64,000 nt of DNA from a virus. Made by a program: the position numbers and the translations under genes. This document shows positions 12,829 to 63,976 of this stretch, piece by piece (within the stretch, counting starts at the first letter, position 1; each line of letters starts with the position of its first letter). The notes under the pieces are model-generated. The model saw only the letters and a list, made by a program, of their open reading frames with translations. It had not been told where the DNA came from and searched no databases. Where the stretch lies: IMG/VR virus record IMGVR_UViG_3300009347_000008, one strand, 5' to 3'.

Positions 12829-12856
12829 TTATATATCGCTGAAATGTTTTTATTTG
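12829..12856 (-). promoter_or_regulatory. Conserved promoter-like box (plus-strand TTATATATCGCTGAAATGTTTTTATTTG; minus-orientation CAAATAAAAACATTTCAGCGATATATAA), copy 1
   Basis: The same motif recurs at 39158, 44298, 51985 and 59396, with a weaker copy at 63950. It always lies just downstream (in the minus direction) of a terminator hairpin and 30-110 nt upstream of the next minus-strand start codon. Confidence 0.5.
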
Positions 12857-12860
12857 CGTC

Positions 12861-12890
12861 ATAAAGGGAGACCCGAAGGTCTCCCAGTAT
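12861..12890. terminator. Terminator hairpin GGGAGACC-CGAA-GGTCTCCC
   Basis: Palindrome with a CGAA loop immediately after the stop of 12893..13558. Confidence 0.65.
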
Positions 12891-12892
12891 CT

Positions 12893-13558
12893 TTATCGTG
12901 GAATGAGGAATTCAGAACTATAGAGTTCAGTGATGAGTGCTCTTTTGTCTGGATCTTCATCCGTACCATCTTCAATAACCACATTGTTAGGTGAGAAGGG
13001 TAATTGACCAATACGTGCGATCAGTTTAATCTGTTCGACAGTAAGGTCATTGGCATCAAGGATATCTTTGAGTTTGTCAACTTCCAAATCAATCTTACAC
13101 CATTCGGAAACCTTACCTTTCGGATTCCTAAAGACATCAACTTCGAAGTTCATATCCTTAGCTTTAATCTCGAATTCAAGATCCCCCTTCTTGCCACGGA
13201 TAGTCTCCGCTTTGAACACATAACGAGTCTTGCTCATGAAAGTATCACAAACAGCCATAAAGAGGTTATAAACCTTTTCACTGATACGTTCTGTGGTTTC
13301 AATACTAGCTTGAACACCCTGAGTTTTCTGTTTTTCTTTGCTAGTCATCTCATAGACAGGTTCTTTACCTTCTACTGTGATTTTGCGAATTCGGACAGAA
13401 CCTTTGGCAGACTTAATCTGCGCTTGCTCATGTTGTTCAATATGGACTGCTTGCGCTAATCCATCAGGATTAGTAATCTTGGCATAGATCACTACTTCGG
13501 TTTCTTGGCTTGTATTTTTGTTATCGCCATCTTCCATGGCAATCTTAATAATACCCAT
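12893..13558 (-). CDS. Hypothetical protein (~221 aa). Start moved to the internal Met (MGIIKIAMEDG...), which is preceded by AAGGAG.
   Basis: Strong Shine-Dalgarno sequence 7 nt upstream of ATG 13558. Confidence 0.55.
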   Translation of the reverse strand: MGIIKIAMEDGDNKNTSQETEVVIYAKITNPDGLAQAVHIEQHEQAQIKSAKGSVRIRKITVEGKEPVYEMTSKEKQKTQGVQASIETTERISEKVYNLFMAVCDTFMSKTRYVFKAETIRGKKGDLEFEIKAKDMNFEVDVFRNPKGKVSEWCKIDLEVDKLKDILDANDLTVEQIKLIARIGQLPFSPNNVVIEDGTDEDPDKRALITELYSSEFLIPR

Positions 13559-13568
13559 AATTGACTCC

Positions 13569-14099
13569 TTAACTTGATAGAAGCATTCTGACAATCTCAG
13601 AGAAGAAAGTCACAATGGCAGACAGGATACCTGACTCTGACATAGTGCCGCTAGTCAAGCTAGTGTAGATGATAGTTACAACAATTGCAATCAAGCTAAT
13701 TAAGAGAAGTGAAGAAACAAAGATGAGTAAATATTTTACCCATTCATGCATTCTAGCTCTGTTAATCATTCTTGTCTTGCGTTCATTGAGCTTTTGTTCA
13801 ACAGACTCAGATCTTAACTGTTGTCTGTAGTAAGCTCGCAGAGCTTTCGTTTTATCTTCCTCAGATAGATTAGCGATTGTTGCTGTAATTACATTTTCAA
13901 GAGCTTCATCATCTGCTACGAAAACATCGTTACCACCATCCAGATCATTGAAATCAGTAGGGAAAGGAAATCCACCAGGATCTCTTCCACCCATACCTCC
14001 ACCAGGACCCGGAAACCTACCCATGTTAGGCATTCTCCTAGTAGGTGTGCTCAGGTTATGAACTGAGTCTTTGTCGAAGTCGCCTAAACCTATTCCCAT
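13569..14099 (-). CDS. Membrane protein (176 aa): Gly/Pro-rich N-terminal region and a C-terminal transmembrane segment; possible lysis-associated (holin-like) protein
   Basis: Hydrophobic stretch YLLIFVSSLLLISLIAIVVTIIY; immediately downstream of the spanin pair. Confidence 0.4.
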   Translation of the reverse strand: MGIGLGDFDKDSVHNLSTPTRRMPNMGRFPGPGGGMGGRDPGGFPFPTDFNDLDGGNDVFVADDEALENVITATIANLSEEDKTKALRAYYRQQLRSESVEQKLNERKTRMINRARMHEWVKYLLIFVSSLLLISLIAIVVTIIYTSLTSGTMSESGILSAIVTFFSEIVRMLLSS

Positions 14100-14446
14100 T
14101 ATTTAGACTCCTTCTTCGCTTTATCTCTTTCCTCACCAGCCTTCACTTTTTCATTCATGATGTTTGTGATAGCTTTTTTATCGGCAACACACATTCTCAA
14201 TTCCGAAATCAATGATTGACTATATCGAATCATGAGATCTTCTTTCACTTCGTGAGAAGCGTTTATGTATACACTCTTCTTAGGAGGGCTAGGAATTGTA
14301 TTTAACTTCAATAAGTGAGTAGGGACGGTCACGTAAACAGTTTCTATTTTGTAAACAGGAACTTCCTTGATCTCAGTCTTAACAATCGTACCACAACCTG
14401 TAATGAAGAGTGCGACCAATAGAACGATAAACTTCTTTAGCATCAC
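14099..14446 (-). CDS. o-spanin-like outer-membrane lipoprotein (115 aa)
   Basis: Signal peptide with a lipobox (LFITGC), a Pro-rich segment (IPSPPKK), and a 4-nt overlap with the upstream i-spanin-like gene. Confidence 0.55.
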   Translation of the reverse strand: MMLKKFIVLLVALFITGCGTIVKTEIKEVPVYKIETVYVTVPTHLLKLNTIPSPPKKSVYINASHEVKEDLMIRYSQSLISELRMCVADKKAITNIMNEKVKAGEERDKAKKESK

Positions 14447-22353: not shown

Positions 22354-23634
22354 TTATTCACACATGTCAAGCATGTACTTATTAATCACTTCATAGACAG
22401 CGAAGATCGCACCAATGTCAGCCAGTAGAGCAGACATGAGGAATTTAGCTTCATTGATCTTACCGGAATACTCTAAGAGAGCATCCAGACTATCCTTCAA
22501 TGTACTATTGTCCTTTTGCGTTTCAAGTTCACTAGTCTTTTCAAGGGTATCACGAATAACTTGTCTACAATAATCGTAAGCTGCAATACGGCTTTGAATA
22601 ACTGTACTCAGTTTACCTGTACCAATGAAACCGAAGATACCACCGATGGTGCAGCTATTACTAAAGGAGCTTTCGCTACCAATACAAGTACTGTTATCGT
22701 ACTTCCAAGGTTTGTATTCACCGGTGGCTGGGTCAATTACGTAAGTCTTGGGACCATTAGTAACTTTATAGAAGTCACCAAACACTACTGTCCGAATAGT
22801 GCCATCGACTGAGTCGCTACGGAAGACCTTGGATAGATTTTCAATAAACTCACCAGTCTTAGTACCTTCGAAATCAGATCTCATGACTTCTGCACGTCTA
22901 CGACCTTCTTCGTATTCGATCAGATGCGGCCTCAAGAGATATAAACCCACACCCATCAAATCAGCCCACTTCAGATGTTTACTGAAGGAACACTTCACAG
23001 TTTCGAGATCATCAGATTCGTATTCGTTCAGGAATCGGATAATGTTCTTATTAAACTGTACACTGATATCAGTGTAAGCCAAACGCTTCTCTTGAAGTTC
23101 TTGTTCCGACACATCCAGAAGTTTCTTGCCTAAGTCAATGACAGTAGCTTTAAGATCAGTGTATGCCTTCTCGTAATTAGATCGCATCAATGACAAAGCA
23201 GGCTTGTATTCTGTCTTTGACTTCTCTTCTGTATAGAGATTAGGATTACCCATTGGTTGTTTACGAACAGGTGGGGTTTCCTCTTCATCAGATTGTTCTG
23301 GAGGTTTTTGCTGCTCAGGAGGAGCTTCTGTGTCATTACCTTCCAAATCTTCAATAATAGATTCGACAGCAATCACATCTGCTCTACTGATACCGCCGGA
23401 TTCTTCAATCTCAGCGGATTTATCTGCCAGCTCAACCAAACGATCTTCTCTGGATTTTTGGATAACAAACTCAGCATCCAATTCTGGAAGACGGCGTACC
23501 TGAATACCTTGAGTGAAAATAGTTTCATCAGATACATCATTAGATGCTTCTCTACCACGGGCAGGAGTATCTAGTACAGCGGTTCTTCCTTCAGGATTAC
23601 CGAACTCGTTATCGACTTCGTCATTCAGTCCCAT
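22354..23634 (-). CDS. Hypothetical protein (426 aa)
   Basis: ORF. Confidence 0.6.
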   Translation of the reverse strand: MGLNDEVDNEFGNPEGRTAVLDTPARGREASNDVSDETIFTQGIQVRRLPELDAEFVIQKSREDRLVELADKSAEIEESGGISRADVIAVESIIEDLEGNDTEAPPEQQKPPEQSDEEETPPVRKQPMGNPNLYTEEKSKTEYKPALSLMRSNYEKAYTDLKATVIDLGKKLLDVSEQELQEKRLAYTDISVQFNKNIIRFLNEYESDDLETVKCSFSKHLKWADLMGVGLYLLRPHLIEYEEGRRRAEVMRSDFEGTKTGEFIENLSKVFRSDSVDGTIRTVVFGDFYKVTNGPKTYVIDPATGEYKPWKYDNSTCIGSESSFSNSCTIGGIFGFIGTGKLSTVIQSRIAAYDYCRQVIRDTLEKTSELETQKDNSTLKDSLDALLEYSGKINEAKFLMSALLADIGAIFAVYEVINKYMLDMCE

Positions 23635-38549: not shown

Positions 38550-39074
38550 TTACAGAATCAGGGGGTCTTTTTTGTTAGTTGAGCAAGGATTTTGGCATCC
38601 AATATGGATAACCTTATGTTCGTCGTCAATCACGAAGTTGCGTGGATCACTCTCGCAATACTTGATTTTGTCTTCATAATCAACCTGAATCTCCCATGGT
38701 GGGCATTTGATATGTTCAGGATGATCACCATGATACTGCCAACCCAAAACCTTACCACCATTACGAATAACTCGTAGGTAGTATTGGATCTCATGGAATT
38801 GCCCACCCATTTTGATAATGCCATCAGTATCAATGGAGAACCATTCACCATGTTTTCCGACATAGAATTGACCTTCGACACACTGGTATGCGTCAACATT
38901 TTTATAACCGGATGACAAAATATGCTTCTTCATCCAATCTGGGATGAAAGTAGCTTCCTTGAGAAGAACCCCTACAGCATTGTTGGGATAGTGAAAATGA
39001 CCTTTGGTCTCGTAATTGATCCACTGACGAATGTTATCCATAGCCACAGCGTCAGTATAAATAGTAACTTGCAT
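38550..39074 (-). CDS. Hypothetical protein (174 aa)
   Basis: ORF downstream of promoter-like box copy 2. Confidence 0.55.
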   Translation of the reverse strand: MQVTIYTDAVAMDNIRQWINYETKGHFHYPNNAVGVLLKEATFIPDWMKKHILSSGYKNVDAYQCVEGQFYVGKHGEWFSIDTDGIIKMGGQFHEIQYYLRVIRNGGKVLGWQYHGDHPEHIKCPPWEIQVDYEDKIKYCESDPRNFVIDDEHKVIHIGCQNPCSTNKKDPLIL

Positions 39075-39157
39075 GATGTTTTTACCTTTAAAAATGTCTA
39101 TTAGTTATCAGTTAATAGACTGGTTAGTTTTACTAAGTGAATCTTAGCTCATTTTTG

Positions 39158-39185
39158 TTATATATCGCTGAAAGTTTTTTATTTG
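39158..39185 (-). promoter_or_regulatory. Promoter-like box copy 2 (TTATATATCGCTGAAAGTTTTTTATTTG)
   Basis: Near-identical to the copy at 12829-12856; lies between the terminator at 39195-39218 and the start codon at 39074. Confidence 0.5.
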
Positions 39186-39194
39186 ATCAAAAAA

Positions 39195-39218
39195 GAAAAG
39201 CACCCGAAGGTGCTTTTC
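39195..39218. terminator. Hairpin GAAAAGCACC-CGAA-GGTGCTTTTC
   Basis: Perfect palindrome with a CGAA loop after the stop of 39226..40410. Confidence 0.65.
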
Positions 39219-39225
39219 TTAGCTG

Positions 39226-43859: not shown

Positions 43860-44240
43860 TCAGAGGATATTACTAGACACCGCATCGAGGCGGCGGATTG
43901 CAACCGGACCAATAGATTGATCAGGCAACGTACCGAGAATCACCAAGTCCCCGATATTCAAAGGTGAAAAGTTCTTGGTGAGGCGACGCAGAAAATCGGT
44001 AGGGATTCCAATATCAGGACCGCTGCGACCACGGACGATTGTCATGTCAGTCTTACCTTCTTTGAAGAACTGAGTCACAACACCGTGAGACCCGATGAAA
44101 GGACGCTCAAACGGGTAGAAGCTGCTCTCAGGAGCAACAGCTTGTACATCTACTTCTTCAACAACTACTTGCTCAGTATTGTCTGTTTGTTCTTCTTTAG
44201 GAGGTTTCTTTCCGAAACCAACTTCAATAACGTTTGACAT
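43860..44240 (-). CDS. Hypothetical protein (126 aa)
   Basis: ORF downstream of promoter-like box copy 3. Confidence 0.5.
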   Translation of the reverse strand: MSNVIEVGFGKKPPKEEQTDNTEQVVVEEVDVQAVAPESSFYPFERPFIGSHGVVTQFFKEGKTDMTIVRGRSGPDIGIPTDFLRRLTKNFSPLNIGDLVILGTLPDQSIGPVAIRRLDAVSSNIL

Positions 44241-44297
44241 TAATTACCTTAAAAAGTTAGGTTATAGAATAGGCACAGATACTAGTACCATCGACAT

Positions 44298-44320
44298 GAT
44301 ATATTGTTGAAATGTTTTCG
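44298..44320 (-). promoter_or_regulatory. Promoter-like box copy 3 (GATATATTGTTGAAATGTTTTCG)
   Basis: Same hairpin-then-box arrangement as the other copies. Confidence 0.45.
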
Positions 44321-44330
44321 TATACAACAT

Positions 44331-44359
44331 AAAGAGAGTCCTATAATAGGACTCTCTAG
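44331..44359. terminator. Hairpin AGAGAGTCCT-ataat-AGGACTCTCT
   Basis: 10-bp perfect stem after the stop of the Thg1-like gene. Confidence 0.6.
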
Positions 44360-51368: not shown

Positions 51369-51956
51369 TCACCAGTATTTCATTACTGTATTTCTGGAGA
51401 TTTTTAATTGATCTGCGATCTTGTAAACACTTAAACCTTGGCTCCTGAGAGCTTTGATTTGATTAATAATATCTTGACTCTTTGTTCGACCTACAGGAAA
51501 AGCTTCTGGATTTGTTTCTATTTGATATTTAGCTTTACATGAATTAGAACAGAAGATTAGTCCACTACCATTATTAGTATAATGTTTGTAGAACTTTTCA
51601 CCCATACTTCTTTCAGTTAAAGTAAAATCTTTACCACAATATGGACAAGCTAAATCAAATTTCTGCTGTACATTATTGATGTAATGTAAGCGTTGCTTCT
51701 CTCGATTTTGTTCAGGTGTTAGGATTTGAAGATTGTTAGGATCATCATTGGTTTTATTATTGTCAATGTGGTCTACTTCTTCTTGGTCAGTTAAGAAGCG
51801 ACCAAGCTTAACCGCCATTAAATATCTAGCCAATGTAGTTCCTGTTAGAGAACCATCAAATCTTTTTAATGTGACAGCTCTCCTGCCTTCATTATTCACA
51901 TAAACATAACCTGCCTGATACTCAGTATTAAAAGGATATTCTAAATCTATTTTCAT
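51369..51956 (-). CDS. Free-standing HNH endonuclease (195 aa) embedded in the tRNA cluster
   Basis: VDHIDNNKTNDDPNNLQILTPEQN (HNH_3-type) followed by a Cys cluster (CPYCG...CSNSC) and a C-terminal HTH-like segment. Confidence 0.65.
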   Translation of the reverse strand: MKIDLEYPFNTEYQAGYVYVNNEGRRAVTLKRFDGSLTGTTLARYLMAVKLGRFLTDQEEVDHIDNNKTNDDPNNLQILTPEQNREKQRLHYINNVQQKFDLACPYCGKDFTLTERSMGEKFYKHYTNNGSGLIFCSNSCKAKYQIETNPEAFPVGRTKSQDIINQIKALRSQGLSVYKIADQLKISRNTVMKYW

Positions 51957-51984
51957 AGCAACTCCATTAATTGTTCAGATTAAT

Positions 51985-52006
51985 GATATATTGCTGAAAT
52001 GATTTT
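51985..52006 (-). promoter_or_regulatory. Promoter-like box copy 4 (GATATATTGCTGAAATGATTTT)
   Basis: Conserved box immediately 3' of tRNA-Arg and ~30-50 nt upstream of the HNH gene start. Confidence 0.45.
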
Positions 52007-52015
52007 AGAAATAAA

Positions 52016-52090: not shown

Positions 52091-52176
52091 TTGTCCTTTA
52101 CTCTAATCCAACTGAGTTACAGACGCTTTATCTTTAAGCTGTTGCTACTATTCGCTGAGCTATGGGCAGTTATGTT

Positions 52177-52464: not shown

Positions 52465-52478
52465 GTTTACTCCTTAAA

Positions 52479-52819: not shown

Positions 52820-52835
52820 AGCACCCGAAGGTGCT
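52820..52835. terminator. Short hairpin AGCACC-CGAA-GGTGCT in an A-rich/T-rich context
   Basis: Member of the CCCGAAGG hairpin family downstream of 52957..53529. Confidence 0.45.
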
Positions 52836-52956
52836 CATCTTTATCGGAAGAAGTATCGTTTGATCTTTTCCCAGAATTTCAGCGATGAGACGAGCTAGAT
52901 GTCTTTACCCAAAATCAAACCATTTAATTTAGAAAACGGCTCTGGATTTGTGGTAA

Positions 52957-53529: not shown

Positions 53530-53550
53530 TGTCTTTTACCTTCTAAGTGG

Positions 53551-54084: not shown

Positions 54085-54126
54085 TCTTCTATCCTTTCAA
54101 AAAATGGAACGTCATAAAAAGAAAGA

Positions 54127-54152
54127 GCACCCGAAGGCACTCTTTCTTTGGA
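54127..54152. terminator. Imperfect hairpin of the CCCGAAGG family (AAGAGCACC-CGAA-GGCACTCTT)
   Basis: Palindrome with two internal mismatches, flanked by CATAAAAAG/CTTTGG. Confidence 0.45.
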
Positions 54153-54158
54153 TATCAA

Positions 54159-54434
54159 TTATGCGCAGCTAGCTTCGAACTGAGCGCGTTGGGCAGCCGT
54201 CAGAACAGGATTGCCCTTACCGGTCTTCTTGGGCTTTTCTTCAGCGACCAGTGTCCAATTGGTGGAGCCTTCTTCTCGCGTCAGGAAAACAGTTTGACCG
54301 ACTTCAGGATCTTTGATGGCGGAGACATCCACCTTGTATTCACCTTCACGACCCTTAAGGGTGATGCCGTCTTTCTCGATCAGATCAACGATTGCGAAGT
54401 TCTTTTCTTTGCGAACAAAAGGTACGAAAGACAT
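54159..54434 (-). CDS. Small GC-rich protein (91 aa), function unknown; probably highly expressed
   Basis: ORF with markedly elevated GC and its own hairpins on both sides. Confidence 0.5.
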   Translation of the reverse strand: MSFVPFVRKEKNFAIVDLIEKDGITLKGREGEYKVDVSAIKDPEVGQTVFLTREEGSTNWTLVAEEKPKKTGKGNPVLTAAQRAQFEASCA

Positions 54435-54536
54435 GAGTTTCCTTTAAAGAAGGTTGTTAATTGGTTTGGTTGTCAAAGTATTACATGGTAATACATAAAC
54501 ATGATATATGGTTGTAATTATTTTAAATAAACATCA

Positions 54537-54567
54537 TAAGAAGGAGTACCCGAAGGTACTCCCTTTA
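54537..54567. terminator. Hairpin GGAGTACC-CGAA-GGTACTCC within CATAAG...CTTTATG
   Basis: Perfect palindrome with a CGAA loop. Confidence 0.65.
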
Positions 54568-54739
54568 TGACCCCTTGGTGATAGCGTCAGGCTTACGATC
54601 TAAACAACATTTGAAAGGATAGAAAGAAAAATGTAAGATCAAACACGAAAGCGCTATCGCAACGAGAAACTGATTAAATATAAATACCTAGTCATCCAGT
54701 GTATTCTTTCCGTAACACACTTTCTAACCACATACTATA

Positions 54740-54991
54740 TTAGCCTAGTTTATTTTTAATAAACTCGACTACAGCGTTGACTGTGAAGGGTTTACCTTGG
54801 AAGGCATCTTCCCAGTCTTCATCAGGGATCTCAAGATTGAATTCATCTTCAAGACCCATGACAATCTCTACATTATCCAAGGAATCGAGTTCACCCGATA
54901 GATCCTTTTCATGATCAACTTCACTGATGTCCAACATGGCAACATCATTGATCACTTCTTTAACGCGTTTGAGGATTTCGTTCTGTTCCAT
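54740..54991 (-). CDS. Acyl carrier protein-like (83 aa)
   Basis: [21 protein letters not shown] matches the ACP phosphopantetheine-attachment motif (DSLD with the modified Ser) and helix II. Confidence 0.7.
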
Positions 54992-54997
54992 TTTATC

Positions 54998-55945
54998 TCA
55001 CTTGATATTCAAGAGTTTGTTAACAAGGACGGTGTCTTCCAGATTACCATTGAAGACAAGCTTGGCAGCATCTCTGTACATATCTTGAATTTCATCCATA
55101 CTGAGATTAGAAATATACGCACTAAAGAATTTAATCTTAGCGTTATATTCCTTGCTACCTATCTTGAGATTCTTGACTTGATTAAAGACGAATGGGAATT
55201 CAGACTTATAACCAGGGGCCGGAGTATCAGCATGTGTATCTGCCTGAGCTACTTCAGTCTTCTCTTGAGAAAGAACCTGATCAATAGGAACTGCTACAGG
55301 TATTGCCTTTGCATCAGTCAAAGCTATCTCGATCAAACTAAGCGCAGTAACGATACCCGAACTTACAGCTTCATTAACTTCGGAGAAAGAACTCGTAGGA
55401 TCATTCACCAGATTAATGAATTCAGCAGATCGTTTACTAACCATTGCTGCTGCTTGTACACGATCTTCACGCTTGAGACGTTTGATGATCTCAGCGAGTG
55501 CCTTGTCAGAGTTTTCAATACTCAACATATTGGTTGAGTTTACCAGATCATCAACAGCGGCAACGAACTCATCCAATACTGGAACCACAAAGGAGGTGAA
55601 AGCTTCTGGTTTCTTCGTATGCAGAGCCAACAGATGCTGGCATTCGTGAACGAAACGCAAGGCGCCCACATTAGAGTTGAGGTTATACTTCGTGATGTCG
55701 CCCAACATCTTACGAACGGTATTAACCTTCATCTCCATACCAATGTATTGCGAACCATTATCACCCATCAAATCGTTGTTGACTTGATTGATATAATCGG
55801 CAGCCATATGGAAATCGCCACTACTAATAGTGGTATCAATACCAGAACTCAAAACATCGTGAAGATACTTGAATTGCTGATATTCCTTAGACTGGAATAG
55901 TTGACGTACAGCGTCTAGAAAAGAAATTTCAGGCATTTTAGTCAA
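54998..55945 (-). CDS. Hypothetical protein (315 aa), immediately downstream of the ACP gene
   Basis: ORF; contains a His/Cys cluster (HECQHLLALH). Confidence 0.55.
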   Translation of the reverse strand: MTKMPEISFLDAVRQLFQSKEYQQFKYLHDVLSSGIDTTISSGDFHMAADYINQVNNDLMGDNGSQYIGMEMKVNTVRKMLGDITKYNLNSNVGALRFVHECQHLLALHTKKPEAFTSFVVPVLDEFVAAVDDLVNSTNMLSIENSDKALAEIIKRLKREDRVQAAAMVSKRSAEFINLVNDPTSSFSEVNEAVSSGIVTALSLIEIALTDAKAIPVAVPIDQVLSQEKTEVAQADTHADTPAPGYKSEFPFVFNQVKNLKIGSKEYNAKIKFFSAYISNLSMDEIQDMYRDAAKLVFNGNLEDTVLVNKLLNIK

Positions 55946-56357
55946 TCAGTTGATTTGTATTGATAGCGTGCAAAGTGCTATCAAGGAATTGAACAAAGTA
56001 CTGGATATACATAGCGTTACCCAGCCAGACAGCTTCATGGGGGAAGTTAGGCTCTTGAGTTTGAATCAAGTTAGACTTAGCCACCTTACCATTGACCATC
56101 AACAAAGACAGAGGTGTGCCACCACGACGATAGTGCATCATCAACTCACCCGCTTCTGAGGTATCGATGTACAAGAACTTGATGCGTCCATTGTAGACCT
56201 TTACCATGGTCTCCAGCGTACCCAGCATTTTACCACAGCTACTGCAACCACCGGCAGTAAATGTAAGCATAACTGGAATAGGGCTGTTGGCTACTTCATC
56301 GACAAACTCAGTAGCATTGATTCGTTTGACACCTTGTGCCGCAAATGTTTGGTTCAT
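55938..56357 (-). CDS. Thioredoxin-fold protein (139 aa)
   Basis: CxxC motif (TAGGCSSCGKM) preceded by a beta strand (VMLTF), as in thioredoxin-like proteins. Confidence 0.5.
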   Translation of the reverse strand: MNQTFAAQGVKRINATEFVDEVANSPIPVMLTFTAGGCSSCGKMLGTLETMVKVYNGRIKFLYIDTSEAGELMMHYRRGGTPLSLLMVNGKVAKSNLIQTQEPNFPHEAVWLGNAMYIQYFVQFLDSTLHAINTNQLID

Positions 56358-56389
56358 TTCATATCCTTCGTTAGGTTGTTGTACCTAAA

Positions 56390-56839
56390 TTATTCTTTAT
56401 CCTTGTTAAAAAATAAAACTTGATTGGTGTATAGAGGACGCCTCTCATCAGAATAATAACTCTCATGTATTTGTTTCTTCTCCTGGGCTATTCTAAAAGC
56501 TTGCCAAGGATCTAAGAACCAATCATCTAAAGTACTAAAACCTACAATATACTCTTGTATTCGAGCATATAAAGGATTAGCACCCAGATACATATAAAGA
56601 GCAGTTATACTGTCGTGGTGTGTGATGAACCTAGTGCTGCTAATAGCTTTGCCCTGGTAGAGTAAAGCTATAGCATGGATTTTATCTACTTTATCAGCAG
56701 TTAACTCACTAGCAATTTTCAACGATGGACCTTTGACACCTTCTAGTATTTCTCCATCAGCCAAATTATACATCTGTATATAACCTTTGGAGTCCACTTG
56801 TCTATAGTTCCATGTAAGATAATCTTCAGGTAACGGCAT
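56390..56839 (-). CDS. Hypothetical protein (149 aa)
   Basis: ORF. Confidence 0.5.
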   Translation of the reverse strand: MPLPEDYLTWNYRQVDSKGYIQMYNLADGEILEGVKGPSLKIASELTADKVDKIHAIALLYQGKAISSTRFITHHDSITALYMYLGANPLYARIQEYIVGFSTLDDWFLDPWQAFRIAQEKKQIHESYYSDERRPLYTNQVLFFNKDKE

Positions 56840-57297
56840 TACGCTGTCTTATTACCTGCTGCATTCTTCATCTTGAATGGCTTGAGGTCTTTGATCACAT
56901 ACGGGGCTGCGAGTTTAAAACCTTCGGCTATTCCACTTTTGTAGAACTCTTGGGCATTTTTATTAAACAACTCTATTCGTTGCTCAACGCCTAAGTTCTC
57001 ATATGCCAGAGGAACACTGTGTTTTTGTCTGGTGCCTACAGCACCTTCCTCATAAGCATCGTAGTAATAAGGACGAATACAAATACGAACCTTATCAAAG
57101 ATTAAGAAAGCTCCAAGGTTCTTATCACCTTGCCACAATACAGCAGCATGACCTTTTTCAATCTTTACCAAAGTGTTATTCGTCTCTTCCTCTACATAGC
57201 CACCTAGTTTCTTCACATGACCTATGAGAGTATCCACATCCATTATCTTATCGGCATCTGTGTAACTTGCCATTTCTAATCCTCTAAAAGATTGCAT
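56839..57297 (-). CDS. Hypothetical protein (152 aa)
   Basis: ORF. Confidence 0.5.
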   Translation of the reverse strand: MQSFRGLEMASYTDADKIMDVDTLIGHVKKLGGYVEEETNNTLVKIEKGHAAVLWQGDKNLGAFLIFDKVRICIRPYYYDAYEEGAVGTRQKHSVPLAYENLGVEQRIELFNKNAQEFYKSGIAEGFKLAAPYVIKDLKPFKMKNAAGNKTA

Positions 57298-57550
57298 CCT
57301 TGATGAACATGAAATGCTCCATCAATTCGTCTTTGTTCTCACATATTTGTTTAGTCAAGCAAACAGAAGTTTCATTCTTTTGTTTCATCAACTTAACATG
57401 ATAGGTATCTTGTCCTGCTACCATGACCTTACTCACCAGCAAGGATAGTACGTCATTACTTTGATAGATGGAGTGCTTTTGGTTAATAGCTTGTTGAAAG
57501 AAACTATTGACTTTATCCAAACTACCCACTACTGCTACTGACTGTCTCAT
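57284..57550 (-). CDS. Hypothetical protein (88 aa)
   Basis: ORF. Confidence 0.4.
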   Translation of the reverse strand: MRQSVAVVGSLDKVNSFFQQAINQKHSIYQSNDVLSLLVSKVMVAGQDTYHVKLMKQKNETSVCLTKQICENKDELMEHFMFIKDAIF

Positions 57551-57568
57551 GGTAGAATCCTTTCGCCT

Positions 57569-58129
57569 CTATGGCTCCAATCGTAAGCTCGCTACTATAG
57601 TCCTAAAGCTCAATGACTTGAACTCAATCTCCCTCAGATAGCGATCACATTTATGGTTGAATGCTCCTTGACTCTCTATCAAGTAAACATAACTTCCACT
57701 TCTCAATTCTACTTCCTTGAAGTATTCACTCAGCTCATGAGAGGCCACATGGTACTGAGGTCTGAAGTGAATATATTGAGTACAGTACTGATCATGTTCC
57801 CAATCAGGAACACTAAACAATTGAGCAGTTGTCTGTGCCAACCAAGGAAGCATCACATTATCAAGATGTTCTATGGTAAGTAAACTAGCTCTAGCTACAT
57901 TCGTGAGGTGTTCTTCTACGTTCTTTTGTTCTTGCTTTACTCTGCTTTGTAGACGTTTATCGTAAGTGATTGGATGAAACACATCACTAAACCTAAAGAG
58001 TGGTTTTGGATCTTTTTTCAAAGCTAGTATATGGTCCAGTGCTCCCTTGAACTCTGACCTAGCCATATGCAGCTCCATTACTAACTTGTCATACCTATCG
58101 CTGTTTTCATATATCTTAGTAAAGTCCAT
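57569..58129 (-). CDS. Hypothetical protein (186 aa)
   Basis: ORF. Confidence 0.5.
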   Translation of the reverse strand: MDFTKIYENSDRYDKLVMELHMARSEFKGALDHILALKKDPKPLFRFSDVFHPITYDKRLQSRVKQEQKNVEEHLTNVARASLLTIEHLDNVMLPWLAQTTAQLFSVPDWEHDQYCTQYIHFRPQYHVASHELSEYFKEVELRSGSYVYLIESQGAFNHKCDRYLREIEFKSLSFRTIVASLRLEP

Positions 58130-58605
58130 TTCATTATCCTTTCATAAAGTCATAGATACTGACTCTTTATGTACTATTAAAAAAATACTGTTACTATTGA
58201 TACTGTGGGTACGTACATACATACATAATGGGGGGCTACGCCCCCCTAGTATATATTATTAAGTTAGTATGTCTACTGCGTAGAAGACTCCGTAGGATGG
58301 TCTTCGCTCGCTGGTATAGTCTCATCCTTCGTCTACCTTCGGTATCCTCAGTCCTCGTCTATCCTCTAGCTCGCTCAGACTGAAAAAATCAATCTGAGCA
58401 TACTATTGAAGTATCAATAAAATTTAGATAAAAACAAATAGATTAATAAAGTAAAGCTTCTAGCTTTACAATGAAATCATTTAATTTAATAGAGTATATA
58501 CGAGTAGTAAACTACTCGATTAAGAGAATGATAAAGACATGTATATATAGGGCGCAAAAATTGTGATTTGGATTTTTTAAGTTATCTAGAAAAAAAAACA
58601 AAAAA

Positions 58606-58630
58606 AAAGACTCTCCATATGGAGAGTCTT
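58606..58630. terminator. Hairpin GACTCTCCATATGGAGAGTC between an A-run and a T-run
   Basis: Perfect palindrome at the right edge of the 520-nt non-coding region. Confidence 0.6.
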
Positions 58631-58649
58631 TTATGACGCTTACTATGGC

Positions 58650-59330: not shown

Positions 59331-59395
59331 ATTGTCTAACGATCATCACTCGTTAGACTGGTTTATAAAGAACTTATAACTAAGCTCATTTTTAC

Positions 59396-59420
59396 TATAT
59401 ATTGCTGAAAATTTTTTATT
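59396..59420 (-). promoter_or_regulatory. Promoter-like box copy 5 (TATATATTGCTGAAAATTTTTTATT)
   Basis: Same hairpin-then-box arrangement; ~60-90 nt upstream of start codon 59330. Confidence 0.5.
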
Positions 59421-59428
59421 ACTGCATA

Positions 59429-59452
59429 AGAGAGTACCCGAAGGTACTCTCT
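59429..59452. terminator. Hairpin AGAGAGTACC-CGAA-GGTACTCTCT (an exact copy of 12503-12526)
   Basis: Identical 24-mer at the two loci. Confidence 0.7.
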
Positions 59453-62121: not shown

Positions 62122-62190
62122 ACAAAGAAAAAATAAAAGACAACCACTGAAGACGCATATGCGTCATAATCAGATAATTGCCTCTTACTT

Positions 62191-62691
62191 TTATAATTTC
62201 AGTTTAAGCTGTTCATAGAGATAAACGTTTACATTTTTACAATTGCCAACGTTCTTAAAACCCATCTCTACACCAAAGAGTGCAATAGCACCAGATCGAC
62301 TAACACCCATATCACATTGAACGATAACATTCAAATTCTCAGCCAGAGCTTTGGCTAATATGGAATGAATCTTATCAATGTCTTGTTGACTAGGTTTAGT
62401 TTGATCGAAGCCATGATCAGTTTTCTTGACATCATGAAAAAAGAACCTATGACGGTTCTTTTCTCTTACCCAATCAGATAAACCTTTTGGGTAAGTATTA
62501 ATGTCGAAAGCACTGATCTGTATCAGAACACAGTCTGATTTATACTTGAATAATTTATCCTTTTTAAAGGAATACCCAGAGTACAAATCAAATCTAGAAA
62601 AGTTACAGATCCAAGGCATGTTACCTCTTGATAACAGTGGCAGGCGCACAGCGGTAATTAGTCCGGGTACTACGATCACTGAGTGCTTCAT
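62191..62691 (-). CDS. Dual-specificity/protein-tyrosine phosphatase (166 aa)
   Basis: CX5R P-loop: VQCDMGVSRSGAIALF (HCxxGxxRSG signature), with an upstream Asp-containing general-acid region. Confidence 0.65.
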   Translation of the reverse strand: MKHSVIVVPGLITAVRLPLLSRGNMPWICNFSRFDLYSGYSFKKDKLFKYKSDCVLIQISAFDINTYPKGLSDWVREKNRHRFFFHDVKKTDHGFDQTKPSQQDIDKIHSILAKALAENLNVIVQCDMGVSRSGAIALFGVEMGFKNVGNCKNVNVYLYEQLKLKL

Positions 62692-62839
62692 AATGGCGCT
62701 GCAATGATTCGCAGCTATTTCGATCTTTGAACTCTTCCAGCTTGGTAGGGGCGAAGCTACCGTTAGAACTTACAGCGATCAATACCCAGATTGCAAATTC
62801 GGTCATCATGATTTTCCTTAAAAGTACGGATACATAAAA

Positions 62840-62858
62840 AGGAGAGCCGAAGCTCTCC
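62840..62858. terminator. Hairpin GGAGAGC-CGAA-GCTCTCC
   Basis: CCCGAAGG-family hairpin flanked by CATAAAAA. Confidence 0.55.
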
Positions 62859-62862
62859 CCAC

Positions 62863-63891
62863 TTATTGTTGAACTGGAACAAGAGCCACAACGGTCTCGC
62901 CTTCTTCCCAGATGTAGGTTGCCTTCATTTGATGAGCAAATTCCAAACTACGTTTCTTGTCCTCTGTCATGAAACGATAAAGTTCGTAGTCACCAATAGT
63001 TTCGTAAGTGATACAAGAACCTTTCACAGGCAAAATGGTTTTCATCACATCGCGGCTCATACCCGATGGGCAGGAGAAAGCTTTGATGATGAAACGACGA
63101 GGAACGCCAGTGAGGAAGTTTTTGATGCCCTTAGTAGGAATGACCAACAAACGTTCCTTACCGTGGATCTTAGAGATCTGACGAACTTGATCCAAACGGA
63201 GTCGATAGCCATCAGGGTCGTCAATCAGACGCAGATCACGGATAGCACTGCGAATATTCGCTTTACTGAATGCTCGCTCAAGAGTCACACGCAAGTTATG
63301 AATCTTGACTTGATTATCAACTGTTTTCATACCCTTGTGGGCATAGTTGATGTAGAGTGCAATGTCACGAACCAAAGACACCAGACACATAGTGGTCGAG
63401 GGCTTTTCATTCATGAACATTTGTTGATTGACATTGTAAGCAATACTATTGTCAACCAGTGCTTGTTCAGCACCATACCAATCGTCACAGGGACGAATGA
63501 TTTCCAGGCTGTCAGTTTCCTTGAGGTTCTGATACATGTTACGATAGACAAACATCTTGGTATGATGTTTACCCATATAACCCTTCAGATACTTTTCAGG
63601 AATGTAGCAGCCAAAATTAATGACTTGATCATAGTCACCAACAGGTGGAGTAGCTTCCAAGGGATGGAAGGAATGGACACTGATATTTTTATCGAAGTCC
63701 AACTTGCTGATCCATAGAGCAGCACCTACCATCGAATCGATATTGTTCTTATCGACCAAACACAGAATCGTCTGACATTTATTCTCGATGGTCACTTCTT
63801 CCACATCCAGAACAATGGGATCAATTTTGCGACGAGTAAATGATCCGAGATCGTGGAAGAAAGACTTGTTGTCGAGCACGATAGAAGACAT
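62863..63891 (-). CDS. Hypothetical protein (342 aa)
   Basis: ORF; the antisense ORF 62866..63717 was rejected. Confidence 0.55.
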   Translation of the reverse strand: MSSIVLDNKSFFHDLGSFTRRKIDPIVLDVEEVTIENKCQTILCLVDKNNIDSMVGAALWISKLDFDKNISVHSFHPLEATPPVGDYDQVINFGCYIPEKYLKGYMGKHHTKMFVYRNMYQNLKETDSLEIIRPCDDWYGAEQALVDNSIAYNVNQQMFMNEKPSTTMCLVSLVRDIALYINYAHKGMKTVDNQVKIHNLRVTLERAFSKANIRSAIRDLRLIDDPDGYRLRLDQVRQISKIHGKERLLVIPTKGIKNFLTGVPRRFIIKAFSCPSGMSRDVMKTILPVKGSCITYETIGDYELYRFMTEDKKRSLEFAHQMKATYIWEEGETVVALVPVQQ

Positions 63892-63949
63892 GGGGGTTCC
63901 TTTTAAAATAGGTTAAATTGCGTAGAGTCATTTCTAACTCATAACAAGA

Positions 63950-63976
63950 ATATATCGCCAAGATATTTTTATTTAA
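63950..63976 (-). promoter_or_regulatory. Possible sixth, weaker copy of the promoter-like box (AATATATCGCCAAGATATTTTTATTTA)
   Basis: Shares ATATATCGC...TTTTTATTT with the other copies; the window ends before any following hairpin. Confidence 0.3.

Follow-up and report, generated by a model that had tools for sequence, protein, structure and literature searches.

A repeated intergenic box in an uncultivated phiKZ-like jumbo phage is probably an early promoter of the virion RNA polymerase

Which RNA polymerase would read a box that recurs ahead of minus-strand genes in a 64,000-nucleotide stretch of viral DNA (IMG/VR record IMGVR_UViG_3300009347_000008; hereafter the window)? An earlier note on this DNA had listed six copies and proposed a phage-specific early or middle promoter recognized by a modified host RNA polymerase, a phage sigma factor, or an activator. 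From sequence comparisons, we give a probability of roughly 85% to the reading that the boxes serve an uncultivated phiKZ-like jumbo phage as promoters of the early class, read by its virion RNA polymerase (vRNAP). Most likely, the type of signal is already known and its sequence version is new.

The box is present in seven minus-strand copies that align without gaps, and no comparable match was found in shuffled sequence. A plus-strand search with the pattern TATATATCGCTGAAATGTTTTT returned 12830-12851 (0 mismatches), 39159-39180 (2), 51985-52006 (3), and 59396-59417 (3), while 100 dinucleotide-preserving shuffles indicated that no matches are expected by chance. Those at 44298 and 63950 have diverged further, yet show no gaps against the others. 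All six copies listed earlier hold, with the first coordinate off by one. Scanning the window with a matrix made from these six, we recovered one further copy that the earlier note had missed (54491-54528, score 20.9 versus a shuffle maximum of 14.6), and found no plus-strand copies and none within ORFs. The boxes, the first gene past each, and the terminator hairpins upstream are as follows.

12818..12855, minus strand: box P1 (-34..+4), AAATAAAAACATTTCAGCGATATATAACAGTTTTGAGC; predicted start G 12821; leader 50 nt
39147..39184, minus strand: box P2, AAATAAAAAACTTTCAGCGATATATAACAAAAATGAGC; predicted start G 39150; leader 76 nt
44286..44323, minus strand: box P3, ATACGAAAACATTTCAACAATATATCATGTCGATGGTA; predicted start G 44289; leader 49 nt
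51973..52010, minus strand: box P4, TTCTAAAATCATTTCAGCAATATATCATTAATCTGAAC; predicted start G 51976; leader 20 nt
54491..54528, minus strand: box P5 (absent from the earlier list), ATTTAAAATAATTACAACCATATATCATGTTTATGTAT; predicted start G 54494; leader 60 nt
59384..59421, minus strand: box P6, TAATAAAAAATTTTCAGCAATATATAGTAAAAATGAGC; predicted start G 59387; leader 57 nt
63937..63974, minus strand: box P7, the weakest copy, AAATAAAAATATCTTGGCGATATATTCTTGTTATGAGT; predicted start G 63940; leader 49 nt
12538..12771, minus strand: first gene past P1, 77 aa, without known family
38550..39074, minus strand: first gene past P2, 174 aa, without known family
43860..44240, minus strand: first gene past P3, 126 aa, without known family
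51369..51956, minus strand: first gene past P4, HNH endonuclease with helix-turn-helix domain, 195 aa
54159..54434, minus strand: first gene past P5, 91 aa
58650..59330, minus strand: first gene past P6, 226 aa, without known family
62863..63891, minus strand: first gene past P7, 342 aa, without known family
12866..12885, minus strand: terminator hairpin 5' of P1, GGGAGACCTTCGGGTCTCCC then TTTATGACGC
39193..39220, minus strand: terminator hairpin 5' of P2, AAGAAAAGCACCTTCGGGTGCTTTTCTT then TTTTGATC
44333..44357, minus strand: terminator hairpin 5' of P3, AGAGAGTCCTATTATAGGACTCTCT then TTATGTTGT
54541..54564, minus strand: terminator hairpin 5' of P5, AGGGAGTACCTTCGGGTACTCCTT then CTTATGATG; the plus strand is terminator-like too
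59430..59451, minus strand: terminator hairpin 5' of P6, GAGAGTACCTTCGGGTACTCTC then TTATGCAG

Each box (consensus aaaTAAAAanaTTTCAgCnATATATnatnnntaTGagc) comprises an A-tract at -34..-26, TTTCAGC at -23..-17, ATATAT at -15..-10, and an invariant T at -1 and G at +1. This TG lies 9-10 nt downstream of ATATAT in all seven copies; it is the shared element in place of an extension formerly ascribed to two copies, one of which carries TGAGCTATAAT and the other TGAGCTAAGAT. All seven copies are intergenic and oriented like the next gene, in a window of which about 10.6% is intergenic by a rough gene list. The ATATAT block precedes the ATG by 36-92 nt, within the 30-110 nt reported before, and the leaders from predicted start G to ATG span 20-76 nt and include a ribosome-binding site. 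Placement directly after a terminator stands for five copies, in which the A-tract starts 8-12 nt (not 5-10 nt) past the stem end. The 51985 copy, P4, instead lies immediately past tRNA-Arg (52016-52090), where there is no terminator, and ahead of the HNH endonuclease gene, and for the 63950 copy, the sequence upstream is lost at the window end. The terminator upstream of P1 matches the phiKZ terminator consensus, a hairpin followed by YTTATKYYGT (PMC10914365). The P1 gene forms a one-gene unit closed by a bidirectional terminator, the P2 gene is followed by a terminator and then by glutaredoxin, NrdI, and ribonucleotide reductase genes, and P3 heads a run of about 10 genes that reaches the terminator at 39193-39220.

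Protein homologies place the window in a distant, uncultivated phiKZ-like jumbo phage. Its proteins include phiKZ-type internal head proteins and a tail tube protein, as well as homologues of phiKZ gp82, gp84, gp87-93, gp128, gp129, gp139, and gp140 in partial synteny, and their top isolate matches are jumbo phages at no more than 42% identity. In addition, L149/L158, a contig (GC 0.40) found in the same sample and in a sibling one, carries the box three times and encodes homologues of PhuZ tubulin (gp39), gp50, gp42, and gp52. No RNA polymerase subunit genes lie within the window, and the RNA polymerase gene of this lineage was not recovered, a gp74-like search of viral contigs yielding only three distant loci.

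According to Ceyssens 2014 (cited in PMC8244752 and PMC10914365), the phiKZ virion RNA polymerase reads early promoters at 28-32 sites. In the phiKZ genome, we found 22 intergenic TATATTAC-N5-TG sites, on one strand only and many of them directly past a hairpin plus CTTTATG. Their consensus, AtTnAAAnnaaTTTAAaannTATATTACaaAtnTGaan, contains three blocks (ATTcAAA.., TTTAA.., and TATATTAC-N5-TG) in the same register as the window box, and the column correlation between the two motifs is maximal at offset 0 (r = 0.575, column-permutation p <= 4e-4). A matrix built from phiKZ alone placed six window copies in register within the top nine of about 128,000 positions (P2 1, P1 2, P5 3, P4 5, P3 6, and P6 8 and 9, rank 9 being in register), with P7 outside the top 15; the absolute scores in the window are low, at most 11.4 versus a shuffle maximum of 7.0. 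One of the phiKZ sites, 45568, lies 80 nt upstream of PHIKZ054, a gene with a primary start site bearing the early motif (PMC8244752). Of the earlier ideas, a phage-specific promoter-like box is supported, most likely of the early class, but a modified host enzyme, phage sigma factor, or activator as its reader is not: the box matches the phiKZ motif block for block, and the window is phiKZ-like. The phiKZ motif has been assigned to a virion-packaged multisubunit phage RNA polymerase that acts independently of the host enzyme (PMC7598289, PMC8244752, PMC5312081).

It is very unlikely that the box is instead a host sigma-70 promoter of the "-10 only" kind, as many ordinary phages have for their early genes, with TAT(A/C)(A/G)(C/T) at -12..-7 and help from the upstream A-tract. 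The hexamers at -12..-7 (TATAAC twice, TATCAT three times, TATAGT, and TATTCT) do match TATAAT at 4-5 of 6 positions, and the conserved G lies 7 nt past them, the right distance for a sigma-70 -10 element, so that weak use by the host enzyme may occur. However, as the earlier note had recognized, the box does not fit the -35/-10 geometry of sigma-70: a TTGACA-like -35 hexamer is absent 16-18 nt upstream, positions -15/-14 do not read TG, and the A-tract at -34..-26 is misplaced for an UP element. Moreover, conservation is highest in TTTCAGC (-23..-17) and ATAT (-15..-12), regions in which sigma-70 has few base-specific contacts. A generic sigma-70 scan listed none of the four boxes it covered (39147-39184, 44286-44323, 51973-52010, and 54491-54528) and found fewer sites than in shuffles (33 versus 48). 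While the phiKZ motif itself has been described with an "extended -10 box" (PMC8244752), this homologous motif has been assigned to the virion polymerase within a transcription scheme independent of the host enzyme (PMC8244752, PMC10914365).

The core of the box is selectively conserved in relatives. At 75-96% identity, substitutions occur at -6, -25, -16, and in the spacer at -9..-2, and ATATAT and TG are never altered; in close relatives (79-96% identity), all changes lie outside the core. Across 30 distinct sites, ATATAT is 96-100%, G+1 100%, and T-1 93% conserved, values inflated in part by the metagenome sites, which were gathered with a pattern fixing several core positions. Orthologues of P1 in six contigs (L166, L175, L183, L184, L186, and L199) differ only at -6 and the A-tract edge, the P5 box is kept in L167, and the P7 core is retained in L161, L185, L188, and L197, where the flanks are 75-85% identical. 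Likewise, more distant phages with GC 0.32-0.59 show the same architecture, each with its own letters. In L164, a related contig, a fused gp71-73-like gene with a gp74-like gene after it has a box 67 nt upstream; gp71-73 and gp74 are non-virion RNA polymerase subunits and early genes in phiKZ (PMC10914365). Early promoters precede some, not all, non-virion polymerase genes in 201phi2-1 (PMC11512511), and the L164 argument is therefore suggestive only.

These data also bear on whether the box could be a middle-class promoter for the phage non-virion RNA polymerase, or a dual-use site, for which we see little probability. The phiKZ middle motif likewise has an A-rich repeat ahead and a conserved element near -22 (PMC8244752), which the box block at -23..-17 recalls, and several boxes precede nucleotide-metabolism or tRNA-flanked genes, types that may belong to the middle class in phiKZ and 201phi2-1 (PMC8244752, PMC11512511). 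However, the box fits the phiKZ early motif in register, with TATAT at -14..-10 and TG at -1/+1, and is distinct from the middle motif with its TACT near -22 as well as from the late one, which has TATG at the start (PMC7598289, PMC8244752). Furthermore, a polymerase made only after infection cannot explain a box ahead of its own subunit genes, as in L164.

More doubtful still is a T4-like middle or late promoter used by the host polymerase with a gp55-like sigma factor or a MotA/AsiA-like activator. The box is AT-rich, has a TATA-like core, and is clearly phage-specific, but the T4 analogy drawn in the earlier note finds no counterpart in the letters, as TATAAATA and the MotA box (TGCTT) are absent from every copy. 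The genome is phiKZ-like rather than T4-like, no sigma- or MotA-like family was found among the 32 window proteins scanned with Pfam or PHROGs (under half of the ORFs), and the motif with which the box is in register operates independently of the host polymerase (PMC7598289).

The vRNAP early-promoter reading predicts transcripts that begin at the conserved G, and these would open with a hairpin in six of the units.

12804..12821, minus strand: predicted 5'-terminal hairpin of the P1 transcript (+1..+18), GAGCTATAATCATAGTTT
39132..39148, minus strand: predicted 5'-proximal hairpin of the P2 transcript (+3..+19), GCTAAGATTCACTTAGT
44272..44289, minus strand: predicted 5'-terminal hairpin of the P3 transcript (+1..+18), GGTACTAGTATCTGTGCC
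54478..54494, minus strand: predicted 5'-terminal hairpin of the P5 transcript (+1..+17), GTATTACCATGTAATAC
59370..59387, minus strand: predicted 5'-terminal hairpin of the P6 transcript (+1..+18), GAGCTTAGTTATAAGTTC
63925..63940, minus strand: predicted 5'-terminal hairpin of the P7 transcript (+1..+16), GAGTTAGAAATGACTC

Pairing starts at +1 in 18 of 25 sites, with stems of 5-9 bp. In 22-nt folding windows, stability is maximal when the window starts at the conserved G (mean -4.61 kcal/mol), in favor of a transcription start there; the overlapping window starting at -3 gives -3.64 kcal/mol, those at least 6 nt upstream or at least 4 nt downstream give -1.6 kcal/mol or weaker, and the promoter region is unfolded (windows starting at -30..-9 average -0.1 to -0.6 kcal/mol). 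The hairpin is enriched in the window lineage, whereas phiKZ lacks it (mean z -3.26 versus -0.59). Changes in relatives leave the pairing in place: at P1, a T-to-C change converts a G-U pair to G-C, at P5 the stem is kept in L167 while the loop CAT becomes TGGCT, at P6 the sole change is in the loop, and at P7 only the loop changes in L197.

The terminator-promoter units coincide with boundaries of insertion or replacement between relatives. At P4, the near-complete identity with L167 and L171 sets in precisely where the box begins on its upstream side, and the sequence farther upstream differs, while L180 has a 566-nt insertion with box sequence at both flanks. Least probable of all is that the box is no promoter and only a dispersed recombination or mobile-cassette boundary, a protein binding site, or a terminator extension: such breakpoints, the 40-125 nt box-plus-leader repeat ahead of unrelated genes, and the constant adjacency to a terminator or tRNA gene would suit it, but the strict orientation toward the next gene, the 20-76 nt to the ribosome-binding site and ATG, and the invariant T-1G+1 are promoter traits, an in-register match to mapped phiKZ promoters is unexpected for a pure recombination site, P4 follows a tRNA gene and the box is therefore not part of a terminator, and a role as recombination substrate is compatible with a promoter role, as in the T4 PeSLs (PMC4122927).

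Taken as vRNAP early promoters, the boxes would work as follows. The multisubunit vRNAP would travel in the virion, enter with the DNA, recognize the A-tract, TTTCAGC, and ATATAT, and initiate at the invariant G right after the invariant T, requiring neither the host polymerase nor newly synthesized phage protein. Each promoter would lie 8-12 nt past the intrinsic terminator of the preceding unit, or past a tRNA gene, which would split the minus strand into short insulated early units, mostly headed by small genes of unknown function. Each transcript would open with the 5-9 bp hairpin, a lineage-specific addition, and gene cassettes would be gained, lost, or swapped at the terminator-promoter unit, itself a short dispersed repeat.

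Comparing the box with known systems, the phiKZ early promoters share its A-rich block near -30, TTT(A/C)A near -20, TATAT at -14..-10, and TG at -1/+1, as well as its position just past hairpin plus TTTATG terminators, its one-strand bias, and its place ahead of small genes of unknown function. However, the letters differ (TTTCAGCR-ATATAT-(A/C)A(C/T) in the window versus TTTAA(A/G)AN-TATATTAC in phiKZ), and the proteins are at most 42% identical. Each jumbo phage that encodes RNA polymerases has an AT-rich motif of its own, centered near -10 ahead of early operons and shown to be an early promoter in every transcript-profiled case (PMC7598289). AR9 has AAATATATATTAT-(6N)-G+1, phiKZ and phiR1-37 start 6 nt past the element (PMC5312081), and the early promoters of phiKZ and 201phi2-1 are conserved at -10, -20, and -30 (PMC11512511). 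The box resembles those of AR9, phiR1-37, and 201phi2-1 in its AT-rich, highly conserved element near -10 and a conserved start 6 nt on (PMC5312081, PMC7598289, PMC11512511), whereas the DNA of AR9 and phiR1-37 contains uracil and their unbroken AT block is longer, and the -20 block TTTCAGC is peculiar to the window lineage and its relatives. The window hairpins followed by CTTTATGACGC, CTTTATGTTGT, or CTTATGCAGT likewise fit the phiKZ terminator tail YTTATKYYGT (PMC10914365), although their stems have other sequences, a TTCG loop is common, and a plain T-run takes the place of the tail in one of the five (39193-39220).

The predicted +1 hairpin resembles the 5' stem-loops of bacterial mRNAs such as the ompA leader, with a stem 0-3 nt from the 5' end and a conserved structure of varying sequence. 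Such 5'-terminal stem-loops stabilize bacterial mRNAs, protecting them from RNase E and RppH, and by analogy the window hairpin would shield the 5' end from 5'-end-dependent decay; no jumbo-phage report of them was found in the literature searched. Similarly, in phage N4, a virion-injected polymerase reads early promoters of the DNA-hairpin type, with a short hairpin in the unit. The N4 enzyme is single-subunit and its hairpin lies upstream of the start, inside the promoter, whereas the window hairpin would be transcribed from +1 and the promoter region itself has no fold.

Finally, the terminator-promoter units recall the PeSLs, composite terminator/early-promoter motifs that mediate modular shuffling in T4-type phages (PMC2839356, PMC4122927). 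In both, a stem-loop terminator is joined to a known or putative early promoter, and many copies of the pair stand among small variable genes, right at the insertion, deletion, and replacement boundaries of close relatives. While PeSLs carry the sigma-70 early promoters of T4-like phages, the window units carry a promoter of the jumbo-phage type; the mode of working appears alike, with no sequence or phylogenetic relation between the two.

The box, a promoter-like element of 38 nt repeated on the minus strand (-34 to +4 relative to an invariant G set as +1), is present where the earlier note had recognized it. The plus-strand 22-mer by which it was described occurs exactly at 12830-12851 and with at most three mismatches at 39159-39180, 51985-52006, and 59396-59417; 100 dinucleotide-preserving shuffles give an expectation of zero matches. 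On the minus strand, these four and the two weaker copies (44298 and 63950) can be aligned over 38 nt without any gap. A position matrix derived from the six copies and run over the whole window added a seventh at 54491-54528 (minus strand; score of 20.9 versus a shuffle maximum of 14.6) and found no copy on the plus strand and none within ORFs. The seven copies are referred to as P1 to P7.

Box copies on the minus strand, with predicted transcription starts and genes downstream
P1: 12818-12855, minus strand; predicted start 12821; one 77-aa gene
P2: 39147-39184, minus strand; predicted start 39150; 174-aa gene, terminator, then a glutaredoxin/NrdI/ribonucleotide reductase/DHFR block
P3: 44286-44323, minus strand; predicted start 44289; about ten genes, as far as the terminator at 39193-39220
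P4: 51973-52010, minus strand; predicted start 51976; HNH endonuclease gene
P5: 54491-54528, minus strand; predicted start 54494; 91-aa gene
P6: 59384-59421, minus strand; predicted start 59387; 226-aa gene
P7: 63937-63974, minus strand; predicted start 63940; 342-aa gene and the genes down to 59456

All seven copies are intergenic, a class of sequence that makes up 10.6% of the window according to a rough gene list, and each is oriented toward the next minus-strand gene. Equal frequency in coding regions had been named as the finding that would speak against the motif, and 0 of 7 copies lie inside an ORF. Likewise, no copy is found in the structural gene block up to ~12.5 kb. The distance from the ATATAT block to the ATG is 36 to 92 nt in the seven copies, in agreement with the 30 to 110 nt previously given for the spacing to the start codon. 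A terminator just upstream of every copy had also been proposed; this holds for five boxes, which sit 8 to 12 nt past a strong, GC-rich hairpin whose loop is often TTCG, and fails for P4, which directly follows tRNA-Arg, while the upstream side of the last box (the 63950 copy) is lost at the window end. With the conserved G as +1, the box consists of an A-tract at -34 to -26, TTTCAGC at -23 to -17, and ATATAT at -15 to -10, which is the published -30/-20/-10 layout of phiKZ-type early promoters. The downstream extension "...TGAGCTATAAT" described in the earlier note is not general; the general downstream feature is a TG that is invariant 9 to 10 nt past ATATAT in all seven window copies.

Jumbo phages that encode RNA polymerases each carry their own AT-rich, highly conserved motif near -10 before early operons, and wherever transcripts have been profiled, this motif is the early promoter read by the virion polymerase, the multisubunit RNA polymerase packaged in the phage particle (PMC7598289). 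The AR9 early promoter is AAATATATATTAT-(6N)-G+1, and transcription in phiKZ and phiR1-37 starts 6 nt past the element (PMC5312081). Moreover, the early promoters of phiKZ and 201phi2-1 are conserved at -10, -20, and -30 (PMC11512511). Transcripts from promoters of this class are expected at once on infection, with no need for newly made protein or for the host polymerase, and chloramphenicol or rifampicin tests on infected-cell RNA have been carried out for AR9 and phiKZ (PMC5312081, PMC8244752). We rebuilt the phiKZ motif from the phiKZ genome itself rather than from published start-site tables. That genome contains 22 intergenic TATATTAC-N5-TG sites on a single strand, many of them directly behind a hairpin and CTTTATG, and one of the rebuilt sites lies 80 nt upstream of PHIKZ054, for which a primary start site with the early motif has been published (PMC8244752). 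The two consensus sequences align block for block (phiKZ, AtTnAAAnnaaTTTAAaannTATATTACaaAtnTGaan; window, aaaTAAAAanaTTTCAgCnATATATnatnnntaTGagc), and their column-wise correlation is maximal at offset 0 (r = 0.575, column-permutation p <= 4e-4). In an independent test, in which the phiKZ-only matrix was run over both strands of the window (~128,000 positions), the window copies ranked 1, 2, 3, 5, 6, and 8/9, all in register, and only the weakest copy, 63937-63974, was missed.

The best-supported reading is that the boxes are early promoters for a virion-packaged multisubunit polymerase. The virion polymerase would read the box and begin transcription at the conserved G, with each promoter positioned directly behind the terminator that closes the unit before it. 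That the box is an active promoter, where it starts, when it acts, and which polymerase reads it are what we infer in this reading. The earlier note had similarly favored a phage-specific promoter, early or middle, over a sigma-70 promoter, which broadly agrees with our analysis; its proposed readers of the signal, a modified host polymerase or a phage sigma factor or activator, and its analogies to T4 do not. The first genes behind P1, P2, P3, P6, and P7 belong to no known family, as is typical of early genes. Genomes with virion-polymerase promoters of the phiKZ type encode both virion and non-virion multisubunit RNA polymerases; no homologues of RNA polymerase subunits are encoded within the 64-kb window, and a related contig with the box, L164, does encode homologues of gp71-73 and gp74.

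A host sigma-70 promoter is the sole alternative with any sequence support, as the hexamer at -12 to -7 reads TATAAC, TATCAT, or TATAGT and has the right spacing from the G. Such promoters combine a TTGACA-like -35 hexamer with a TATAAT-like -10 placed 16 to 18 nt after it, or have TGn-TATAAT. The boxes, however, have neither a -35 match 16 to 18 nt upstream nor a TGn (TG at -15/-14), their strongest conservation falls in the would-be spacer, and a sigma-70 scan of 38000-57999 lists none of the four boxes within that stretch, which makes this origin improbable. There is similarly little chance that the box is a middle promoter for the non-virion polymerase, as it matches the phiKZ early motif and not the middle (TACT near -22) or late (TATG) motif (PMC7598289, PMC8244752). 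More doubtful still is a T4-late (gp55) or T4-middle (MotA/AsiA) promoter in a genome that is not T4-like. The hallmarks of T4 promoters are TATAAATA at -10 in the late class and, at -30 in the middle class, the MotA box (a/t)(a/t)(a/t)TGCTT(t/c)A; all seven boxes lack both TATAAATA and TGCTT. The least probable reading, a pure recombination repeat or protein-binding repeat, leaves the strict orientation, the ribosome-binding-site spacing, and the match to mapped promoters unexplained, and a recombination or binding role is compatible with the box as a promoter.

The phage itself is recognized solely by distant protein matches, and megablast of 38000-46000 against the phage collection gave no nucleotide-level match. 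The window encodes two phiKZ_IP (phiKZ-type internal head) proteins and a Phage_TTP_15 tail tube protein, and its 983-aa virion protein is matched by 290 jumbo-phage records at no more than 42% identity. In addition, tblastn against the whole phiKZ genome revealed homologues of the phiKZ proteins gp82 (DNA polymerase), gp84, gp87-93, gp128, gp129, gp139, and gp140 as well as of DHFR, dCTP deaminase, and RNase H, in an order that is partly that of phiKZ. Judged by these protein matches, the window is identified as a distant phiKZ-like jumbo phage. A gp80 (vRNAP) homologue was sought beside the gp82 and gp84 homologues, where a 426-aa ORF (22354-23634) had no similarity. The window sequence is present in JGI metagenome 3300009351, and an exact-protein look-up outward from the window reached only short contigs of sample 3300009351 and recovered no polymerase genes. 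The contig L149/L158, from 3300009351 and a sibling sample, has the same GC content as the window, carries three box copies, and encodes homologues of PhuZ tubulin, gp50, gp42, and gp52; it probably represents a further portion of the window's genome or of a sister genome.

A metagenome scan for the box retrieved 44 loci, of which many are closely related to the window, at 79-96% nucleotide identity. Close relatives occur in the ERZ6503xx, JACCE*, and RRZU* assemblies and in JGI 3300009347 and 3300009351. In orthologous intergenic regions, substitutions fall at -6, at -25, at the purine at -16, in the spacer from -9 to -2, and at the A-tract edges, the same positions that vary among paralogous copies, and ATATAT and TG are without any change in the orthologue alignments. 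All sites were pooled and near-identical ones collapsed, yielding 30 distinct sites. Among these, conservation is 96-100% for ATATAT, 100% for G+1 (30/30), 93% for T-1, and 73-96% per position for TTTCAGC, values that partly reflect the search pattern and with which secondary sites unselected by pattern agree. More distant phages (35-47% identity in the 983-aa protein, GC content of 0.32 to 0.59) have their own versions with the same architecture, e.g., ATTCAAATAAGTTTCACCCCTATATCACCCATGT followed by the G. In contig L164, the box lies 67 nt upstream of a fused gp71-73-like gene, which is followed by a gp74-like gene. The corresponding proteins are non-virion polymerase subunits, encoded in phiKZ by early genes that are taken to be transcribed by the virion enzyme (PMC10914365). 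The position of the L164 box is suggestive only, since some non-virion polymerase genes of 201phi2-1 have no early promoter (PMC11512511). When viral contigs were searched by profile for gp74-like genes, only three distant loci were found. As for the box searches, a loose first scan of the collection (16 fixed bases) gave more than 120 unrelated single matches and was uninformative, and a tighter pattern in viral contigs returned mostly conserved coding sequence of unrelated AT-rich viruses in addition to L149 and L158. The string AAAAAAYTTTCAGCAATATATTGA recurs in AT-rich viral contigs (L146, L147, L150, L152, L154, L156, and L157, two of them labeled GVMAG, i.e., giant-virus bins) with coding-like conservation in its flanks; it is unrelated to the promoter, and short patterns of this kind can mislead.

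The bases that the earlier note saw past the box (GAGCT...) form the 5' arm of a short hairpin. Across 25 non-redundant sites of the lineage, the mean folding energy of the 24 nt that follow the conserved G is -4.86 kcal/mol, compared with -1.06 in shuffles (mean z -3.26), and these segments also exceed random 24-mers from the window in stability (Mann-Whitney p = 8e-10). When the start of a 22-nt window was moved from -30 to +61, stability peaked at +1 (-4.61 kcal/mol); windows starting at least 6 nt upstream or at least 4 nt downstream reached -1.6 or weaker, and the overlapping window at -3 reached -3.64. Base pairing begins at +1 in 18 of the 25 sites. While the stem sequences differ among sites, changes between orthologues are located in loops or convert G-U to G-C. 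As the foot of the hairpin coincides with the conserved G, it provides independent support for this G as the start. In contrast, phiKZ has no +1 hairpin (mean z -0.59), and distant relatives are mixed. An N4-type promoter, which carries, ahead of the start, a hairpin with a stem of 5-7 bp and a loop of 3 nt, was rejected: 22-nt windows starting at -30 to -9 fold at a mean of -0.1 to -0.65 kcal/mol, and the sole hairpin begins at +1. The 5'-terminal stem-loops of bacterial mRNAs protect the 5' end, and we infer by analogy that the +1 hairpin could protect the 5' end of the transcript; a role in promoter escape is also conceivable. Literature searches for 5'-hairpins on jumbo-phage early transcripts returned nothing relevant.

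The phiKZ terminator consensus is a hairpin followed by YTTATKYYGT (PMC10914365). The terminator tails of the window read CTTTATGTTGT, CTTTATGACGC, and CTTATGCAGT, and by this comparison the terminators upstream of the boxes are of the phiKZ kind. Across the whole window, a family of GC-rich hairpins, many of them TTCG-looped, followed by TTTATG has 19 members on the minus strand (e.g., 2507, 12865, 30126, 34145, 38513, 45249, 54539, 59429, and 62840) and ten on the plus strand (e.g., 12527, 22342, 30148, 38538, and 54564), counts from a permissive finder that include some weak 6-bp stems in ORFs. Several, with CATAAA before the hairpin and TTTATG after it, look bidirectional. The tail of the family fits the published phiKZ terminator consensus and includes the TATG at the heart of the phiKZ late promoter, the specificity of which is unexplained (PMC12809450). 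In addition, ~45 nt around the terminator of the 226-aa gene (58593-58644; GACTCTCCATATGGAGAGTC and then a T-run) recur with 86-93% identity in otherwise unrelated contigs of the same group (L163, L168, L172, L191, L196, and L200) and have the appearance of a further regulatory repeat in dispersed copies.

With or without a leader of ~90 nt, the box precedes unrelated genes. The proteins behind P2 and P6 are not paralogues although promoter and leader are common to both, implying that the shared leader is a regulatory repeat and not the result of gene duplication. The P2 and P6 leaders contain a second hairpin (~39085-39125 and 59340-59365, minus strand) ~12 nt before the ribosome-binding site, which is also seen in the leaders of L149 and L161. 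Compensatory changes occur in its stem (GTCTATTA/TAATAGAC, GTCTAACGA/TCGTTAGAC, and GTTTAACG/CGTTAAAC), whereas TGAT(A/G)A is retained in its loop, and this hairpin could serve as an operator bound by a protein. Moreover, the breakpoints of three differences among close relatives coincide with the box. An insertion of 566 nt in L180 is flanked on both sides by matches to window 12831-12855; L198 has a 796-nt box-plus-gene insertion between the convergent genes ending at 22308 and 22354; and L167 and L171 become almost identical to the window precisely where P4 starts on its upstream side, the preceding sequence being different. The stretch 51369-52090 (minus strand) holds the HNH endonuclease gene with its own early-type promoter between tRNA genes, and promoter and gene are nearly identical in L167 and L171 (a single substitution in ~150 nt). 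This is the pattern expected of a mobile homing-endonuclease cassette, for which the P4-HNH unit is a candidate.

A more speculative proposal, possible but held tentatively, is that terminator, virion-polymerase promoter, and +1 inverted repeat form a composite unit under selection, with a polymerase-assist or cap-like role, which is also a substrate for cassette shuffling. The promoter would then extend past +1, with the inverted repeat as an integral part. The hairpin might aid the promoter escape of the injected polymerase or the release of nascent RNA from the template, or it might let the first phage mRNAs withstand sensing or 5'-end-dependent decay by the host until the phage nucleus has formed. 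As a recombination substrate that shuffles early-gene cassettes of jumbo phages, the unit would be a counterpart, apparently undescribed for this group, of PeSL, the composite terminator/early-promoter motif of T4-type phages.

Other RNA elements and genes were observed in the window. A tRNA-Leu(UAA) gene at 47933-48474 (minus strand) is interrupted at the canonical U34/A35 position by 453 nt of intervening sequence; ARAGORN did not call it on the raw window, and the joined exons (exon 1, 48474 to 48440; exon 2, 47986 to 47933) are recognized by ARAGORN as tRNA-Leu(taa). The insert contains a sub-threshold Rfam group I intron match at 48035-48341 (36.2 bits, gathering score of 50, E = 1e-6). 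In the region 25018-28378, an HNH endonuclease ORF (26538-27872) and an Rfam group I intron (27826-28120, plus strand, 66.5 bits) lie downstream of the gp82-like DNA polymerase gene (25018-26484, plus strand), and an intron bearing a homing endonuclease appears to interrupt the polymerase gene. On the minus strand, a 240-nt intergenic gap holds a Twister-sister ribozyme match (46289-46367, 41.9 bits versus an Rfam gathering score of 34), a tRNA-like sequence lies at 50857-50913 (28.8 bits versus the Rfam tRNA threshold of 29, with no ARAGORN call), and 44371-45207 encodes a Thg1-like (tRNA-His guanylyltransferase family) protein. Finally, the close relatives L161 and L188 lack 342 nt (62278-62619; 114 codons, in frame) inside the 166-aa gene 62191-62691, which has a weak dual-specificity phosphatase match.

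The box can serve as a ready rule for annotating early transcription units, which in turn point to candidate host-takeover genes, across an uncultivated lineage of jumbo phages found in several metagenomes. The architecture of the virion-polymerase promoter (-30, -20, and -10 blocks and T-1G+1) is kept despite ~35-40% protein identity and a GC content of 0.32-0.59, and its retention across diverged phages constrains models of DNA recognition by a sigma-less polymerase, a problem that to our knowledge is still unsolved. The +1 hairpin and the cassette boundaries, which appear to be undescribed for the phiKZ-like group, would add to knowledge of early mRNA survival and genome plasticity in nucleus-forming phages. 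These findings overturn nothing in current understanding.

Comparing the window with known systems, the boxes behave in the same way as the PeSL cassettes of T4-type phages, in which a stem-loop terminator fused to an early promoter is repeated and lies at boundaries of indels or replacements that distinguish close relatives (PMC2839356, PMC4122927). However, the promoter part of a PeSL is a sigma-70 early promoter of a T4-like myovirus, which the window's box is not, and the likeness is thus one of functional analogy and not of membership, because the promoter class differs. The early promoters of phiKZ-like phages have an AT-rich element near -10 with conservation near -20 and -30, as do the window boxes, and a conserved start G ~6 nt past the element, which is matched here at the sequence level only. 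Likewise, both are intergenic, co-oriented with operons, and absent from late structural clusters. The box is most probably a new sequence version of the known virion-polymerase early promoter of phiKZ-like phages.
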